Of a stretch of 4,734 bases of DNA, positions 41 through 4,734 are shown piece by piece. Both the position numbers and the translations under genes were made by a program. The DNA is taken from IMG/VR virus record IMGVR_UViG_2778261417_000009; one strand, given 5' to 3'. Positions within the stretch are counted from its first letter, which is position 1. The number at the start of each line of letters is the position of its first letter. The notes under the pieces were generated by a model that saw nothing but the letters and a program-made list of their open reading frames with translations, was not told the origin of the DNA and made no database searches. Origin of the DNA: a virus (Duplodnaviria > Heunggongvirae > Uroviricota > Caudoviricetes).

Positions 41-553
41 GTGATAACAGATGTCTGGAAATATAGGGGCAAATCCAATAGTGCAGGAAAGTTACGCTAT
101 TCGTTTAAGGAGGTTTCAGCAGTAAGCCTGAATGGTGTTGCCGGAGGTAACGGTTTTTGTATCGACAGTTTTGATATTCAGTTCGATAACAAACTCCAGA
201 CACAGCGTTGTATCGGGACTGGCTCGCCTTATGCAGGAGCAAATATTCCGACTACTTTTACACCGTCCGGTACGGTGACGCTTTCATGGTCTAAAGCCGC
301 GTGGGAAATCTGGAGTAAAACACTGACTGGAGAAACAGTTCCGTTCAGCTTCACGCTTTCGAATGGAGAGGGGGCATACACTTTCAGTTTCCCGAAGGTT
401 CAGGTGTCAGGTGAATGGCCTGATGGGGGTAATACTGACATTATCCAGGTTCAATTGAGCATTACCGCAGCAGATGAAGCACCTACGATAACCAGAAAAA
501 AATGCTCCCCGACTGCCGTGATCGCAAAAGCCAGTGCTGATGCGATTAGTTGA
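41..553 (+). CDS. Candidate major tail (tube) protein, ~170 aa; start codon uncertain (GTG at 41 immediately after an in-frame TAA at 38-40)
   Basis: Open frame 41-553 from the six-frame track. Position immediately upstream of the chaperone and tape measure genes matches the conserved order major tail protein - chaperone - tape measure. The Gly/Ser/Thr-rich, beta-strand-like composition (e.g. GTVTLSWSKAAWEIWSKTLTGETVPFSFTLSNGEGAYTFSFPKVQVSGEW) fits small tail tube proteins. No internal Met exists, so the start must be GTG 41 or another non-ATG codon, with no clear Shine-Dalgarno upstream. The call rests on synteny, not on recognised motifs. Confidence 0.5.
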   Translation: MITDVWKYRGKSNSAGKLRYSFKEVSAVSLNGVAGGNGFCIDSFDIQFDNKLQTQRCIGTGSPYAGANIPTTFTPSGTVTLSWSKAAWEIWSKTLTGETVPFSFTLSNGEGAYTFSFPKVQVSGEWPDGGNTDIIQVQLSITAADEAPTITRKKCSPTAVIAKASADAIS

Positions 554-601: not shown

Positions 602-1063
602 ATGAGGTTATGGATGTTTATTCTTAATCAGAAAATTATCACCGGTGGAGAACGCTGGTTTACGCCAATGAAGGACTTAAAACCTGTAGACGGGTTAAAA
701 CTGTTGGTGGCAAGCAGCGATAACGATCAGTATCGCTCCCGTAATGCATTAATCCGTCGTCACATTGAGAAAATGGATGCCAGTTTGCACGTCGGAACGA
801 AGGAGTTTGATATTTCAAAGGTTTCCGAGGTAGATTCTGTTGATGATTTACTCATTGATAATGCCGCTCGTTATCTGCTGAAAGACTGGAAAGGGGTTGG
901 TGAACTGGTTAATGGTGCTGAGGTTGCACTGGAATATACGCCAGAACGAGGGATCGCGCTGCTTAAGCAGAATCCAGAGTTGTACTGGCAGATCCTTGCA
1001 GAAGCAGCCAGCATCGCCCAGGGTAAAGAGCAGCAGAAGCAGGATACGATAAAAAAGCCATAG
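602..1063 (+). CDS. Tail assembly chaperone, short (zero-frame) product, lambda gpG analogue
   Basis: 153-aa ORF lying between the candidate tube gene and the tape measure gene. It ends in TAG at 1061-1063, one codon after a canonical slippery heptamer, with an overlapping open -1 frame. Purine-rich Shine-Dalgarno (GGGGG, 588-592) sits 9 nt upstream of ATG 602. Alternative starts at ATG 614 and ATG 668 cannot be excluded. Confidence 0.7.
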   Translation: MRLWMFILNQKIITGGERWFTPMKDLKPVDGLKLLVASSDNDQYRSRNALIRRHIEKMDASLHVGTKEFDISKVSEVDSVDDLLIDNAARYLLKDWKGVGELVNGAEVALEYTPERGIALLKQNPELYWQILAEAASIAQGKEQQKQDTIKKP

Positions 1064-1371
1064 CCGCCCAGCGGTGGTTATCGGAGTTCGGGGGAGAAAG
1101 GGGGGAAAAGGCAAGATGGAAGCGAGAAAAACTCAGGTTGCCACCGATACCGGAACCAGAAATAGACCCGGTGCTTAAGGAATTGTTGTACGCCTATTCG
1201 GTAATATCCCGTGCCCGACGTTATGCTGGAATGACCGGGGTGCCTTTGCCTTTATCTCTGACAGAGATAAATGAATATTTAGCCACTCATCCGGTATTGA
1301 TTGAGCGCGATGAGTTTGAAGCAGTGATCTTTGCACTGGATGACCAGTATTTTCAGGAGCAGTGTGTGTAG
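602..1371 (+). CDS. Tail assembly chaperone, long product made by -1 programmed ribosomal frameshift at 1051-1057 (lambda gpGT analogue); predicted ~256 aa (152 aa zero frame + 104 aa from the -1 frame, 1057-1371)
   Basis: The zero-frame codons AAA (1052-1054) and AAG (1055-1057) sit in the heptamer A AAA AAG (1051-1057). The -1 frame is open from 1027 to the TAG at 1369-1371. The only start the ORF track finds for this frame is a TTG at 1138 with no Shine-Dalgarno, so independent translation is unlikely. The arrangement matches the conserved chaperone frameshift found upstream of tape measure genes in long-tailed phages. Confidence 0.6.
1051..1057 (+). other. -1 programmed ribosomal frameshift slippery heptamer A AAA AAG
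   Basis: Read directly from the sequence: ...ACG ATA AAA AAG CCA TAG in the chaperone frame. The heptamer is identical to the classic E. coli dnaX slippery sequence. An AGGA (1041-1044) lies 6 nt upstream and a short GC-rich stem (about 1063-1077) begins about 6 nt downstream; both are possible stimulators. Confidence 0.65.
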
Positions 1372-1494
1372 TTGTTAATTACGTACACTCTGTTACAGAG
1401 ATGTGATGGTGTCTTTAATTAAATCGATGATGCTCCTGGAGAAAAGCATTGCGTGGCCTCGTAATCGCTATATCTACTATTATGTCGCCTGAAA

Positions 1495-1517
1495 CCCACT
1501 TCGGTGGGCTTTTTGTT
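1495..1517 (+). terminator. Candidate rho-independent terminator (or attenuator) immediately upstream of the tape measure gene
   Basis: CCCAC (1495-1499) / UUCG tetraloop (1500-1503) / GTGGG (1504-1508), followed by CTTTTTGTTGT (1509-1519); the upstream AAA (1492-1494) can pair with the U-tract. The stem is short (5 bp), so strength is uncertain. Confidence 0.45.
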
Positions 1518-1534
1518 GTCTGGAGTTTTAATAA

Positions 1535-4500
1535 ATGGCAGAGCAAACCTCGCGTCTCGCAATAATTATTGATAGCACTGGAGCAAAAAATAATGCTGAC
1601 AATCTGACCTCCTCATTAGTCAAAATGACGCAGGCCGGGGAAACTGCTGCAAATAGCGCAGGGAAAGTGACTAAGGCAACAGAAGATGAGAAGAACGCGC
1701 TCGCAAAATTAAAAGCAGCTATTGATCCAGTTGGTGCCGCAATTGATACTGTCGGTCGACGCTATTCTGAATTAAAGAAATTTTTCGATAAAGGGCTTAT
1801 TGATAAAGAAGAATATGAATTTCTTGTCCGTAAACTTAATGAAACCACAGAGGAATTGAGCGGGGTTGCGCAAGCGCAGAGAGAAGCCGAGAAGGCCGGA
1901 AAACTTGCTGCCGCCCAGCAGGAATCGCAGGCTCAGGCCTTTCAAAGAATGCTGGACAAGATCGACCCTCTGGTTGCGGCGCTAAGAAATCTTGAACAAC
2001 AGCAGGATGAACTTAATGCTGCGTTTGCATCCGGGAAAATAAATGGTTCTCAGTTTGAGAATTATAGCCGAAAAATACAGGAAACACGGCGAGAGCTTAC
2101 CGGAGAGGCTCAGGCAGAGCGAGAAGCAGCAAAAGCGCATGATGAACAGGTTGCTGCTTTGCAACGTCTGATTGCTCAACTTGACCCTGTCGGAACTGCT
2201 TTTAATCGTCTGGTAGAACAACAGAAACAGCTCAATGAAGCAAAAGCTAAGGGGATGCTCTCTCCTGAAATGTATGAGGAACTTTCTGGAAAACTTCGTG
2301 CTATGCGGAGTGAGCTTGAGGTTACTCAATCTCAATTAAGCAAAACCGGAATGTCGGCAAAACAAACGGCTTTTGCTATGCGCATGTTGCCTGCACAAAT
2401 GACGGATATTGTTGTTGGGTTGTCCACTGGTCAGTCGCCTTTTTTGGTGTTAATGCAGCAGGGCGGCCAGCTAAAAGATATGTTCGGTGGGATTGGCCCG
2501 GCGATCAAAGGTGTTGGTTCTTATGTGCTGGGATTAATTAATCCTTTTACCCTGGCCGCAGCAGCCGTTGGCGTCTTAGGGCTGGCTTACTATAAAGGCT
2601 CTCAGGAGCAGGACGAATTTAATAAATCTCTTATTCTTACCGGAAATCAGTTGGGGACAACCAGCGGGCAATTGGGCGATATAGCTCAACGTGCCGGGAA
2701 TGCGGCTGATTCGACAACTGGTGCTGCGGCGGCAGTATTAAATCAGCTTGTGCGTTCGGGAAAGGTAGCGAGCAGTTCGCTGGAGCAAGTGACGACAGCG
2801 ATAGTAAAAACGAGCGAAGTAACAGGAATATCAACCGAACAACTGGTTAATGACTTCAATGAAATTGCAAAGGATCCTGTCAGTGCCATATCAAAACTTA
2901 ATGATCAGTACCATTTTCTGACACTTGCGACTTATAACCAGATTAAGGCGCTACAGGATGAAGGGAACCAGCAGGAGGCCGCCCGCATTGCGACAGAAGA
3001 ATACTCATCTTCAATGATCCAGCGCACCAACCAGATTAAAGAAAATCTTGGTTATCTTGAGACTGCATGGAAAGCTGTCGCAGACTCCGCAAAATGGGCA
3101 TGGGATTCCATGCTGGATATTGGCCGTGAGGCCTCCCTTGATCAAAAAATCTCAGATGTTCTCCGTCAAATTGATGAAATAGAAAAAAATACCCGACCCG
3201 GAGTTTTCGGGTTAGGTGGCATTGGAGATGGCGGAGCTCAAAATAAAAGGCTGGCACGATTAAAGCAGCAATTGGGCGTACTTCAAGCAGAAAAAATTGC
3301 TCAGGACGTCCTAAATTCATCAATAAACGATTACAACAAGCGACAACAGGAAGGAATTGAACTCAGACAGAGAGCAGATGCCTTTTCAAAACAATATCAG
3401 ACCCGGGAGCAGCAGAGAGCTAGTGAACTTGCAAAACTGGAAAAGCTAAAGAGTCAGTATTCAAAGGAAGAATATAATAATTTTATCGCTCAAATAAATG
3501 AGCGTTATAAAGATCCAAAGCAACCAAAGGCGAAAGGTTATTCGGATGATGCTGCCCAACGAATGATTGATCATCTGAATCAACAGAATGCGTTACTAAG
3601 TTCACAAACTGAATTAACCGTTAAATTAAGTTCCTCTGAACAGGAACTGGTTAAGTGGCGTCAGCAGATTGCCGACCTGGAGTCACGACCGTCATCGAAA
3701 TTAACCCAGGATCAGAAATCGCTTCTCTTACACCGGGAAGAAATAACCGCGTTGATGGAGAAAAATGTTGCGATTGAAAAAAATAACAGGCTAATCAAGG
3801 AATCCGCCGAAATAGCTGCATGGCGTGATTCATTGCAGGCTTCGATTGATAATCGTCAACAGGGGTATGATATTCAGATTGCTGGTTATGGGGTTGGCGA
3901 TAAAAATCAGCAACGCCAGCAGGAATTACTGCGGATTGAACGTGAATATAACAATCAGCGTCTGCAACTTGAACGTGACTATGCAGATAAATCCCGTGGG
4001 ATGTCAAATCATGTTTTTCAGGAGAAAATGCAGGCTCTGAATGATGCTCTGGAACGAGAAAAAGAAATTGTCAGACAGAAAAACGAGCAGCTCGATATTC
4101 AGGCAGGAGACTGGGTTAGTGGTGCCTCCCAGGGATTCAATAACTGGCTGGATGACACTAAGGATATCAGTGAGCAGATAAAATCAACCACGACTCAGAT
4201 GTTTGATGGAATGACCGATGCGCTGGGTGATTTTGTCACGACAGGCAAGGCAAATTTTCGTTCTTTCGCTACTTCCGTGATTTCGGATCTTAGTCGAATA
4301 GCATTAAAGGCTTCAATTACTGGGATTTTCGACAGCATTAGTAACAGTTCTTCTGGGGGGATTTTAGGAACTATCGGGAGTGCTATTAGTAAATTTATTC
4401 CGAATGCAAAGGGCGGTGTTTATGAGTCTCCGTCATTGAACACGTATTCGAACGGTATTTATGATTCCCCGCAATTTTTTGCTTTTGCAAGAGGGGCTGG

Positions 4501-4609
4501 TGTTTTTGGTGAGGCTGGTCCGGAAGCCATTATGCCATTAACACGAACTTCCGATGGTTCTCTTGGTGTCAGAGCTATTAATAGTAAAAGTGGTAATGGA
4601 GGCGGGTAA
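1535..4609 (+). CDS. Tail tape measure protein, lambda gpH family, 1024 aa
   Basis: Single 3075-nt ORF with GGAG (1522-1525) 9 nt upstream of ATG 1535. The N-terminal ~270 aa are alpha-helical, Ala/Glu/Lys/Gln-rich repeats. A conserved hydrophobic block ([39 protein letters not shown]...) follows, which as I recall closely matches lambda gpH ([12 protein letters not shown]...GGQSPWLILLQQGGQVKDSFGG). Further matching blocks are [14 protein letters not shown]...WDSMLDIGR and the C-terminal TTQMFDGM...FRSF region. The product ends in a Gly-rich tail (GNGGG). Its size and position after the frameshifted chaperone are as expected for a tape measure protein. Confidence 0.93.
1697..2350 (+). repeat. 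Three tandem ~70-80-aa protein-level repeats within the tape measure N-terminus (diverged at the DNA level)
   Basis: The IDP/LDP motif recurs at residues 63-65, 143-145 and 216-218. Each unit has the pattern L-x-(K/R)-(I/L)-DP-(V/L)...G-x-I...(Y/F)-E...E-T-x-x-EL-x-G-x-AQA-x-REA-x-KA, e.g. [25 protein letters not shown]... / [25 protein letters not shown]... / [26 protein letters not shown]... Confidence 0.6.
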
Positions 4610-4734
4610 TGACTCCAACTTACTGATAGTGTTTTATGTTCAGATAATGCCCGATGACTTTGTCATGCAGCTCCACCGATTTTGAGAACGACAGCGACTT
4701 CCGTCCCAGCCGTGCCAGGTGCTGCCTCAGATTC

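Follow-up and report, generated by a model that had tools for sequence, protein, structure and literature searches.

A tail assembly chaperone pair with a probable G/GT-type -1 frameshift in an interrupted Rac-like lambdoid tail module

Among the described systems closest to the locus reported here is the G/GT pair of phage lambda, in which a -1 frameshift takes place at the heptamer G GGA AAG (Levin, Hendrix and Casjens 1993; Xu, Hendrix and Duda 2004, 2013, 2014; all as cited in PMC5009743). Lambda makes G and GT at about 30:1, in an arrangement that is conserved widely (PMC5009743). For two tail-chaperone genes from an HK97-like cluster, frameshifting has been measured at 6-7% (PMC3711429). 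Also close are the HK97 tail assembly chaperone (PDB 2OB9) and the chaperone fold termed 'spiral' (Pell et al. 2013, cited in PMC5313236). In Escherichia coli, the heptamer A_AAA_AAG is highly shift-prone, the most shift-prone context being one with CC on its 3' side (PMC5009743). The E. coli dnaX signal, which has a Shine-Dalgarno-like stimulator upstream and a strong stem-loop downstream, reaches a shift of about 50% (PMC3711429).

Against this background, we analyzed a stretch of phage DNA of 4,734 nucleotides, which is referred to below as the window. From sequence comparison, we judge it highly probable (roughly 0.9) that the window carries a tail assembly chaperone pair from a Rac-like lambdoid siphophage tail module, and that the two parts are joined by a G/GT-type -1 frameshift. 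This interpretation had been put forward in an earlier reading made from the letters alone (hereafter the sequence-only reading), and it is now supported by synteny, phase, conservation, coding signature, profile collinearity, and fold. The features of the window are as follows.

1-77, no strand given: IS2 end (terminal 77 bases), in place of the 5' half of the tail-tube gene
78-553, plus strand: tail-tube (major tail protein) gene, 3' fragment of about the last 158 codons (Phage_tube_2, phrog_290)
602-1063, plus strand: G-like tail assembly chaperone gene (YdaY family), likely start ATG 614, stop TAG 1061-1063
1041-1044, plus strand: AGGA, proposed earlier as a Shine-Dalgarno-like stimulator, probably just Gln-Asp codons
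1051-1057, plus strand: slippery heptamer A AAA AAG in X XXY YYZ phase, with CC directly 3'
1057-1371, plus strand: T-like extension, 104 codons in the -1 frame and the stop TAG 1369-1371
1058-1084, plus strand: hairpin 3' of the heptamer (11 pairs, tetraloop), a possible local modulator
1495-1518, plus strand: terminator-like hairpin CCCAC-TTCG-GTGGG followed by a T run, from a consensus scan
1535-4609, plus strand: tape-measure protein gene, cut by IS1 at codon 1024 (1077 codons in intact relatives)
4604-4734, no strand given: IS1 end, which gives the truncated tape-measure ORF its stop codon

The order of tail-tube gene, chaperone pair, and tape-measure gene is common to the window and its intact relatives. 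The tube fragment matched Pfam Phage_tube_2 (1.6e-11) and phrog_290 (1.2e-49), and the intact gene in E. coli 90-1 encodes 320 aa annotated as 'phage tail tube protein'. On the other side, the tape-measure gene matched Pfam TMP_2 (2e-81), Tape_meas_lam_C, and TMP_4, as well as phrog_24; its intact counterpart in E. coli 90-1 is 3234 nt long. Both flanking genes have been interrupted. The first 77 bases match, at 100% identity, the IS2 ends of 1338 plasmid records carrying an 'IS3-like element IS2 family transposase', and homology to phages and prophages starts only at base 78. At the other end, phage homology stops at base 4605, and positions 4604-4734 are 98.5-99.2% identical to IS1 or InsB of phage P1, SfIV, and others. 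The two insertion junctions were found together in none of the complete E. coli genomes in the collection. Because the tube gene is cut by IS2 and the tape-measure gene by IS1, the tail module in the window is dead, nothing in the window is under selection for tail assembly, and the frameshift signal in this copy is a fossil. The slip signal itself is intact in the window, with no assembly role remaining for it. The terminator-like hairpin sits in the 163-nt spacer between the stop of the T-like ORF and the tape-measure start; the number of such sites recovered by the consensus scan was no higher than the shuffle expectation.

The chaperone ORF matched phrog_313, 'Tail assembly chaperone', at 6.6e-47 (161 bits). 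Precomputed assignments to PF27119 Phage_YdaY were available for homologues that share 57-99% identity with the window's G, E. coli YdaY clusters among them; a Pfam search of G itself returned no match, the Pfam set used being one without PF27119. Read from ATG 602, G is 153 aa (17.4 kDa) and the fused GT product is 256 aa (29.3 kDa); read from ATG 614, the two are 149 aa (16.9 kDa) and 252 aa (28.8 kDa). The start falls at the position of ATG 614 in 29 of 31 homologues, and ATG 614 is preceded by GAGG 5 nt upstream. The true start is therefore likely to be ATG 614, giving products of 149 and 252 aa. The sequence-only reading had expected a fusion of about 256 aa, with products of about 17 and 28 kDa; the length holds for ATG 602, where the fusion weighs 29.3 kDa, and has to be shortened to 252 aa and 28.8 kDa for the likelier start. 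When profiles of G and T were searched against PDB sequences, the matches were at chance level only. An initial AlphaFold model of G, built with 32 close homologues, reached a pLDDT of only 51 and was discarded, while the addition of Pseudomonas homologues raised pLDDT to 81. Among solved structures, the best match to the confident model was the HK97 tail assembly chaperone (PDB 2OB9). In the model, the G part thus has a tail assembly chaperone fold.

The 3' end of G reads GAT ACG ATA AAA AAG CCA TAG (D T I K K P stop) in the 0 frame, which places AAAAAAG at 1051-1057 in X XXY YYZ phase, one codon before the chaperone stop, as had been pointed out from the letters. It is the sole in-phase heptamer of the X XXY YYZ type in the whole chaperone ORF. 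The translation likewise bears out the earlier description of the -1 frame: it follows a TAA at 1024-1026, runs without a stop from 1027 as far as the TAG at 1369-1371, shares 37 nt (12 codons) with G, and supplies an extension of exactly 104 codons (1057-1368). The first start codon available in this frame is TTG 1138, followed by GTG 1171. Since an AGG abuts TTG 1138 directly, it lacks the spacing of a usable ribosome-binding site, in line with what the sequence-only reading had noted. The bare heptamer is not over-represented in the window (2 copies observed against 2.5 expected), and the information it carries therefore lies only in its phase and placement. The probability that the 12-codon overlap contains an in-phase AAAAAAG by chance is about 0.002, and the -1 frame remained open over 1057-1368 in 11 of 5000 dinucleotide shuffles. 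Judged on these figures, the placement of the heptamer is non-random, and it is the conservation across relatives described below that settles the question of chance.

The extension and G also behave as parts of one protein in profile searches. The T extension matched phrog_1189 at 1.7e-36 and PF23812 Phage_TAC_18 only weakly (20.3 bits, under the cut-off of 27). A search of the fused translation against chaperone families, which had been suggested as a check of the assignment, returned phrog_313 as a single collinear stretch, with residues 5-253 of the 256-aa product aligned to profile positions 13-246 of 258 (177 bits, 1e-51, compared with 161 bits for G alone). Additionally, the match to phrog_8233 crosses the G/T junction and strengthens from 0.0099 for G alone to 1.2e-7 for the fused product. 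An NCBIfam search of the fused protein yielded no match.

The evolutionary behavior of the arrangement was examined in 109 loci that contain both parts, drawn from about 14 genera and including intact prophages and sequenced phages. By automatic frame call, T lies in the -1 frame in 107 of the 109; in one exception (L108), an indel inside G accounts for the call, and T is still in the -1 frame relative to the last G segment. Amino-acid conservation of T starts with the first codon past the heptamer. Over the 27 codons past the heptamer, the three codon positions of the -1 frame show diversities of 0.26, 0.24, and 0.51, and there are about 5-13 synonymous codon changes in the -1 frame versus 0-4 in the other two frames, in a comparison with every relative except one that is near-identical (the lower end being 6 or 5). 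By these substitution patterns, the 27 codons evolve as -1-frame coding sequence.

These observations bear directly on the notion that the T ORF is a small gene in its own right, with translation beginning at TTG 1138 or GTG 1171 either de novo or by re-initiation after the TAG at 1061. Both start codons are present in the window, and PGAP as well as the GenBank records of phages annotate the equivalent of 1171-1371 on its own, as a 66-aa 'hypothetical protein'. Neither start, however, has a spaced ribosome-binding site, and the 27-38 codons that lie upstream of them carry the amino-acid conservation and the -1-frame synonymous signature. In 8 of 18 representative loci there is no ATG, GTG, or TTG within the first 40 codons of the -1 frame, and where starts exist they are not positionally conserved. 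Moreover, the stop of G lies 0, 1, 7, 25, or 35 codons past the heptamer, whereas the position of the heptamer is fixed; a stop that moves by up to 35 codons around a stationary heptamer argues against an independent T gene. We consider this alternative very improbable.

The slip site itself varies among relatives within narrow bounds. At the homologous position, 95 loci carry AAAAAAG, and GGGAAAG is seen in Raoultella, Serratia, Pantoea, Tatumella, and the Acinetobacter phage TRS1, so that one or the other is found in more than 100 loci. Further variants are G GGG AAG in Pectobacterium, C GCA AAG in Erwinia phage Gungnir39 (with a stop codon directly after it), and G GAA AAG in Pseudomonas syringae phages. 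The final AAG is kept in every variant, and its lysine is invariant in the protein alignment.

This series also weighs on transcriptional slippage, in which RNA polymerase would add an A within the A6 run and the ribosome would not slip at all. The site is a homopolymeric A run, and one extra A in the mRNA would give an identical protein, as can be seen in a Providencia stuartii genome that has A7 in place of A6. For transcriptional slippage to be productive in bacteria, runs of about 8-9 or longer are generally required, and A6 falls below that length. The runs listed in the literature are of A or T and longer than 7-8 (PMC3711429). The sites G GGA AAG, C GCA AAG, and G GAA AAG of the relatives hold only 3-4 A residues; they cannot sustain slippage by the polymerase, and they do fit slippage of tRNA-Lys on A AAG. 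Polymerase slippage is marginally less probable than an independent T gene.

In the same Providencia genome, the A7 run turns the fusion into one ORF, with the junction ETIKK|VIEAQKW at exactly the predicted place. Least probable of all is that a single ancestral gene was split by a frameshift mutation or by a homopolymer sequencing error in the A run, leaving a pseudogene: the decay of the surrounding module (IS2 and IS1 insertions), the Providencia A7 allele with its single fused ORF, and the indel-prone nature of homopolymer runs all fit a broken gene, but about 107 of 109 loci, across about 14 genera, show the same division over two frames together with a slippery heptamer in phase, the heptamer switches between two classic slippery sequences without decay, and the short G product ending near the slip site is itself conserved among relatives.

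With ribosomal frameshifting as the preferred reading, the flanking elements proposed as stimulators deserve separate consideration. The sequence-only reading had pointed to an AGGA at 1041-1044 and a GC stem at 1063-1077; both are present, and neither is supported as a conserved stimulator. Only 6 nt separate the AGGA from the heptamer downstream of it, and the AGGA is missing from the Flyfo, Pectobacterium, Serratia, and Siccibacter relatives, and no conserved upstream Shine-Dalgarno-like element was found among the relatives. Downstream, the hairpin at 1058-1084 folds with a dG of -14.2 kcal/mol (z -3.1), a value that 1 of 200 shuffles equals; its GC-rich core spans about 1063 to 1077/1078 and starts 5 nt past the heptamer. 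This hairpin is limited to the E. coli clade, where it folds at -14.2, -11.3, or -9.9 kcal/mol, and the downstream fold in other clades ranges from -2.4 to -9.4 kcal/mol. RNAalifold on 17 diverse relatives gave a trivial structure of 4 pairs (-0.8 kcal/mol) with no compensatory changes, and single-sequence folds of the relatives were at shuffle level, except for a weaker hairpin in one Tatumella locus. The hairpin was therefore rejected as a family-wide element. A scan of the whole window against Rfam in E-value mode returned no match.

On the preferred reading, most ribosomes would translate the chaperone ORF from 614 (or 602) to the TAG ending at 1063 and release a G-like protein of about 17 kDa. 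We infer from the sequence evidence that a minority would slip back by one base on A AAA AAG at 1051-1057, the P-site and A-site tRNA-Lys re-pairing from AAA AAG to AAA AAA, and would read on in the -1 frame from GCC ATA GCC as far as the TAG at 1369-1371. The slip would add a T-like domain of 104 residues and yield a fusion of about 29 kDa whose junction reads DTIKK-AIAAQRW, for which the predicted Glu-C junction peptide is QQKQDTIKKAIAAQRWLSE. By analogy with lambda, the G part would bind the tape-measure protein and the T part would recruit the tail-tube protein, and the frequency of the slip would set the G:GT ratio. In the E. coli clade, the clade-specific hairpin may contribute to the slip.

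A broader proposition drawn from the slip-site series, taken as a whole, is unlikely though conceivable. It holds that the site has been swapped repeatedly within the chaperone family, with only the lysine of the final AAG invariant; that slippage of a single tRNA-Lys would suffice for G/GT expression if the non-canonical sites (C GCA AAG, G GAA AAG, and G GGG AAG) work; and that the E. coli clade, in which A AAA AAG is accompanied by a 3' CC and a hairpin of its own, might shift far beyond the few percent of lambda and thereby alter G:GT. The natural series of heptamers at one homologous position could serve to study the minimal requirements of a G/GT slip site.

The main value of these results lies in annotation, namely in a correct long product. 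RefSeq and GenBank keep the two ORFs separate, as YdaY and a 66-aa 'hypothetical protein' from GTG 1171, and a literature search on ydaY found no frameshift reported for this gene. For the records examined, the evidence would be better matched by a joined, frameshifted CDS than by YdaY followed by an ORF with an arbitrary GTG start. The chaperone gene, slip site, and downstream ORF are present in more than 1000 complete E. coli genomes, and the Rac prophage of K-12 derivatives keeps the 3' part of G, the slip site, and the T ORF. Recognition of the slip site also gives a function to two uncharacterized families, PF27119 Phage_YdaY and phrog_1189. Our understanding of recoding and of tail assembly is unchanged by the locus, which is an ordinary example of a well-known phage strategy.

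A comparison with known systems places the locus accordingly. The upstream stimulator of dnaX lies about 10-14 nt from its heptamer, whereas the AGGA of the window stands at 6 nt and is not conserved, and so does not fit the dnaX-type upstream element. The dnaX-type cassette also calls for a stable and conserved stem-loop some 5-6 nt past the heptamer. Unlike the strong stem-loop of dnaX, the window's hairpin is weak to moderate and clade-specific, and the dnaX shift shortens its product whereas the shift proposed here lengthens it. What the two share is the identical heptamer A AAA AAG, on which a single tRNA-Lys slips (PMC5009743). The sequence-only reading had taken this dnaX-like heptamer as a choice different from that of lambda, whose G GGA AAG it called non-canonical. 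In fact, the lambda heptamer is a canonical X XXY YYZ sequence, and because the chaperone family switches between A AAA AAG and G GGA AAG at the homologous position, the heptamer of the window is not a special departure.

Among the systems compared, Acinetobacter phage vB_AbaS_TRS1 (TRS1_18 and TRS1_19) is a distant homologue, with T 31-39% and G 20% identical. Its slip site aligns with that of the window, and its long form is annotated as a joined CDS with slippage. It differs in having G GGA AAG, placed 26 codons before the G stop, in its host, and in a much diverged sequence.

The relationship to lambda is of another kind. BLASTP of the window's proteins against lambda G and T gave no alignment at E <=100, hhalign returned probabilities of 0.1%, and homology to the lambda G and T families was rejected on both counts; what the locus has in common with lambda is architecture and fold rather than a sequence family. 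The window's heptamer is A AAA AAG, with the G stop one codon past the site, a clade-specific hairpin follows it, and the head genes of the window's intact relatives are P22-like, all unlike lambda. Nonetheless, in both systems the pair lies between the major tail (tube) and tape-measure genes, the second ORF is in the -1 frame without a start of its own, and close to the end of the first ORF there is an X XXY YYZ heptamer, in phase, whose last letters are A AAG. The sizes are also alike (140 aa for lambda G; 149-153 aa for the window's G, with its 104-aa extension), and the exact heptamer of lambda occurs in some members of the window's chaperone family. Of the features of a G/GT-type pair with conserved -1 frameshift (Xu, Hendrix and Duda 2004), the locus shows the position, the -1 overlap, the conserved heptamer, the coding signature, and the G fold.

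The locus is best explained by tandem -1 slippage of tRNA-Lys on the heptamer A AAA AAG (1051-1057), a reading to which we assign a probability of about 90%. As in lambda, this mechanism would yield mainly the chaperone ORF product (G), along with a minor fusion (GT) of G to a -1-frame extension (T). Such a G/GT-type frameshift had been proposed in an earlier sequence-only reading, and it is supported by synteny, the -1 arrangement in related loci, conservation of the site, and chaperone profiles and fold. The window, a 4734-base fragment of a siphophage tail module, contains the following features.

1-77: IS2 end, 100% identity to annotated copies of the element
78-553: 3' half of the tail-tube gene (Phage_tube_2, phrog_290)
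602-1063: 153-codon ORF (phrog_313 'Tail assembly chaperone', 6.6e-47)
1027-1371: open -1 frame
1535-4609: tape-measure gene (TMP_2, 2e-81)
4604-4734: end of an IS1 copy

The first ~162 tail-tube codons are replaced by the IS2 end, with prophage homology from base 78 onward, and the tape-measure gene is cut by the IS1 end at codon 1024 of ~1077, its TAA stop coming from IS1; in intact relatives, these genes have 320 and 1077 codons, respectively. Because both genes are truncated, the tail module in the window is a dead remnant unable to build tails, a point missing from the sequence-only reading. The two IS junctions occur together in none of the complete E. coli genomes in the collection. Between the T stop and the start of the tape-measure gene lies a non-coding spacer of 163 nt (1372-1534); in some relatives, additional small ORFs are present here. 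A textbook-looking intrinsic terminator lies in the spacer, midway through a presumed late operon: a hairpin at 1495-1508 (CCCAC-TTCG-GTGGG) is followed by CTTTTTGTTG, with the T run reaching 1518.

The in-phase heptamer one codon before the TAG and the -1 frame open over 1027-1371, both noted earlier, were confirmed. The 0 frame ends ...ATA AAA AAG CCA TAG, and A AAA AAG is therefore in X XXY YYZ phase; it is the only such in-phase heptamer in the chaperone ORF. In the -1 frame, a TAA at 1024-1026 is followed by open sequence up to the TAG at 1369-1371. While the bare heptamer count in the window shows no over-representation, the probability of an in-phase copy within the 12-codon overlap is ~0.002, and the -1 frame remains open in just 11 of 5000 dinucleotide shuffles. 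Slippage is predicted to give the junction ...DTIKK-AIAAQRW... and an extension of 104 codons. Counted from ATG 602, the predicted products have 153 and 256 aa (17.4 and 29.3 kDa); G probably starts at ATG 614, which has GAGG 5 nt upstream and is the start position in 29/31 homologues, giving 149 and 252 aa (16.9 and 28.8 kDa) instead.

Related loci were gathered by tblastn of the predicted fusion against phage records and by pattern scans of viral contigs and of one genome per species. This yielded 109 loci with both G and T parts, from Escherichia, Shigella, Salmonella, Citrobacter, Klebsiella, Raoultella, Siccibacter, Dryocola, Pectobacterium, Serratia, Pantoea, Tatumella, Erwinia, and Pseudomonas; a separate alignment was made for Acinetobacter phage TRS1. 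T was automatically called in the -1 frame in 107 of the 109 loci; one of the exceptions, L108, carries an indel within G, and, measured from the last G segment, its T is also at -1. The slip site's final AAG encodes a lysine (K152 in the window's G) that does not vary in the protein alignment.

Sequences at the homologous slip position
A AAA AAG: 95 loci
G GGA AAG: Raoultella, Serratia, Pantoea, Tatumella, Acinetobacter phage TRS1
G GGG AAG, non-canonical: Pectobacterium (L102 1920-1926)
C GCA AAG, non-canonical, TAA directly after: Erwinia phage Gungnir39 (L004 1986-1995)
G GAA AAG (then CCA), non-canonical: Pseudomonas syringae phages (L005/L006/L010)

Relatives with non-canonical sites keep the -1 ORF and its conservation, the final AAG being the sole shared part of the site. 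These alternatives at one homologous position form a natural series of modest interest. Lambda's own heptamer, previously taken to be non-canonical, is canonical too.

If T were instead expressed through independent initiation, the earliest candidate starts in the window would be TTG 1138 and GTG 1171, and a spaced Shine-Dalgarno sequence is absent at both. Among 18 representative loci, eight lack any ATG, GTG, or TTG over the first 40 -1-frame codons. Amino-acid conservation in the -1 frame runs from the first codon past the heptamer (consensus A[IL]EAQKWL.EFGGE.GEKAKW.REKL.LPP), and over the 27 codons past the heptamer, nucleotide diversity is 0.26, 0.24, and 0.51 by -1-frame codon position. 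Synonymous codon changes between the window and all relatives but one near-identical number 6-13 in the -1 frame versus 0-4 in either other frame. The slip site is fixed in place, with the G stop 0, 1, 7, 25, or 35 codons past it. Together, the -1-frame conservation and synonymous pattern, the missing starts, and the fixed site with its moving G stop rule out family-wide independent initiation of T and a one-off frameshift mutation. Independent initiation at this locus, contradicted by the same comparative data, is very improbable. Transcriptional slippage on the A6 run is also very improbable and is at odds with relatives whose homologous site is G GGA AAG or C GCA AAG. That a pseudogene or sequencing error lies behind the split G/T frames is scarcely credible against the comparative data.

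A TAG-to-TTG change removes the G stop in viral contigs L071-L077 (~91% aa identity to the window's G), and the 0-frame product extends 35 codons beyond the heptamer, overlapping T by 244 nt; the heptamer and -1 ORF are unaltered. Two natural single-ORF fusions were also found. Providencia stuartii CP114582.1 (L111 2762-2791) has A7 for A6 and one ORF with the junction ETIKK-VIEAQKW; the extra A is either a sequencing error in the homopolymer or a natural allele in which GT is hard-wired. A 10-nt direct repeat, GCAGAAGCAG, is present at 998-1007 and 1033-1042, 35 nt apart. A 35-nt deletion between the copies would link G and the -1 frame at a point before the heptamer (...ILAEA-GYDKKAIAAQRW...), and the 240-aa E. 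coli protein P0001 has exactly the expected sequence.

In the profile search suggested earlier, the fused 256-aa sequence matches phrog_313 in a single stretch (residues 5-253, profile 13-246 of 258), scoring 177 bits versus 161 for G alone. A phrog_8233 ('tail assembly chaperone') match spans the junction, at 1.2e-7 for the fusion versus 0.0099 for G alone. T alone matches phrog_1189 (unknown function; 1.7e-36) and falls below the Pfam cut-off for PF23812 Phage_TAC_18, which 4/16 T homologues match at E <0.01; the precomputed Pfam family on G homologues is PF27119 (Phage_YdaY). A first AlphaFold model of G was unusable (pLDDT 51). The second, whose alignment took in Pseudomonas homologues at 27% identity, reached pLDDT 81.4 and pTM 0.71. 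Annotated tail or tape-measure chaperones make up its best Foldseek matches in viral models, with fused chaperones from phages Loki, Seurat, and K1H (259-268 aa) among them.

An AGGA motif and a GC stem had been put forward as possible stimulators. The 11-pair hairpin at 1058-1084 (dG -14.2 kcal/mol, z -3.1) has a GC-rich core beginning 5 nt past the heptamer, a suitable spacing, and its paired bases are the -1-frame codons for A-A-Q-R-W. Only the E. coli clade has it, with 24 loci at -14.2 kcal/mol, 42 at -11.3, 1 at -8.7, and 7 at -9.9; the same stretch gives -2.4 to -7.5 in other clades, save one Tatumella locus at -9.4. RNAalifold on the relatives found no shared structure or compensatory changes. 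AGGA (1041-1044) lies 6 nt upstream of the heptamer, the spacing of the dnaX stimulatory element being ~10-14 nt, and is missing from Flyfo, Siccibacter, Pectobacterium, and Serratia relatives. The data do not support either element as belonging to a conserved signal; the hairpin may be a local tuner of frameshift efficiency. The heptamer's 3' neighbours in the window are CC, which a review reports to give A_AAA_AAG its most shift-prone 3' context in E. coli (PMC5009743).

DNA 98-99.8% identical is found in ~1070/5426 complete E. coli genomes, as well as in induced prophages of E. coli. The records examined call the chaperone ORF 'YdaY', as in the K-12 Rac prophage, and give the downstream ORF as a separate 'hypothetical protein' starting at the equivalent of GTG 1171; ribosomal slippage is annotated in none of them. 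K-12 derivatives (H42-H49) keep only window 712-1540, at 98.4% identity, so the K-12 Rac remnant retains the heptamer and T ORF. K-12 strains have a ParB-like ORF (ynaK) fused with the 3' portion of the G-like gene, protein P0039 combining PF27119 and PF02195.

We infer the occurrence and efficiency of the slip, as well as the roles of G and T. Lambda has a G:GT ratio of ~30:1; its tape measure is bound by G, and its tube protein is recruited by T (PMC5009743). For two tail-chaperone genes of an HK97-like cluster, frameshifting was measured at 6-7% (PMC3711429). The locus has all computable defining features of the conserved G/GT frameshift class, namely synteny, -1 overlap, in-phase heptamer, conservation, and chaperone fold, and resembles lambda G/GT and HK97 gp12/13 in its working. 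It lies outside both the lambda G and T sequence families (BLASTP and hhalign show no similarity of the window's proteins to either) and belongs to Phage_YdaY / PHROG 313. With the dnaX cassette, it has only the heptamer in common. Its distant homologue in Acinetobacter phage TRS1 already has the long chaperone annotated as a joined CDS, and the present locus is a currently unannotated instance of this well-known G/GT frameshift kind.
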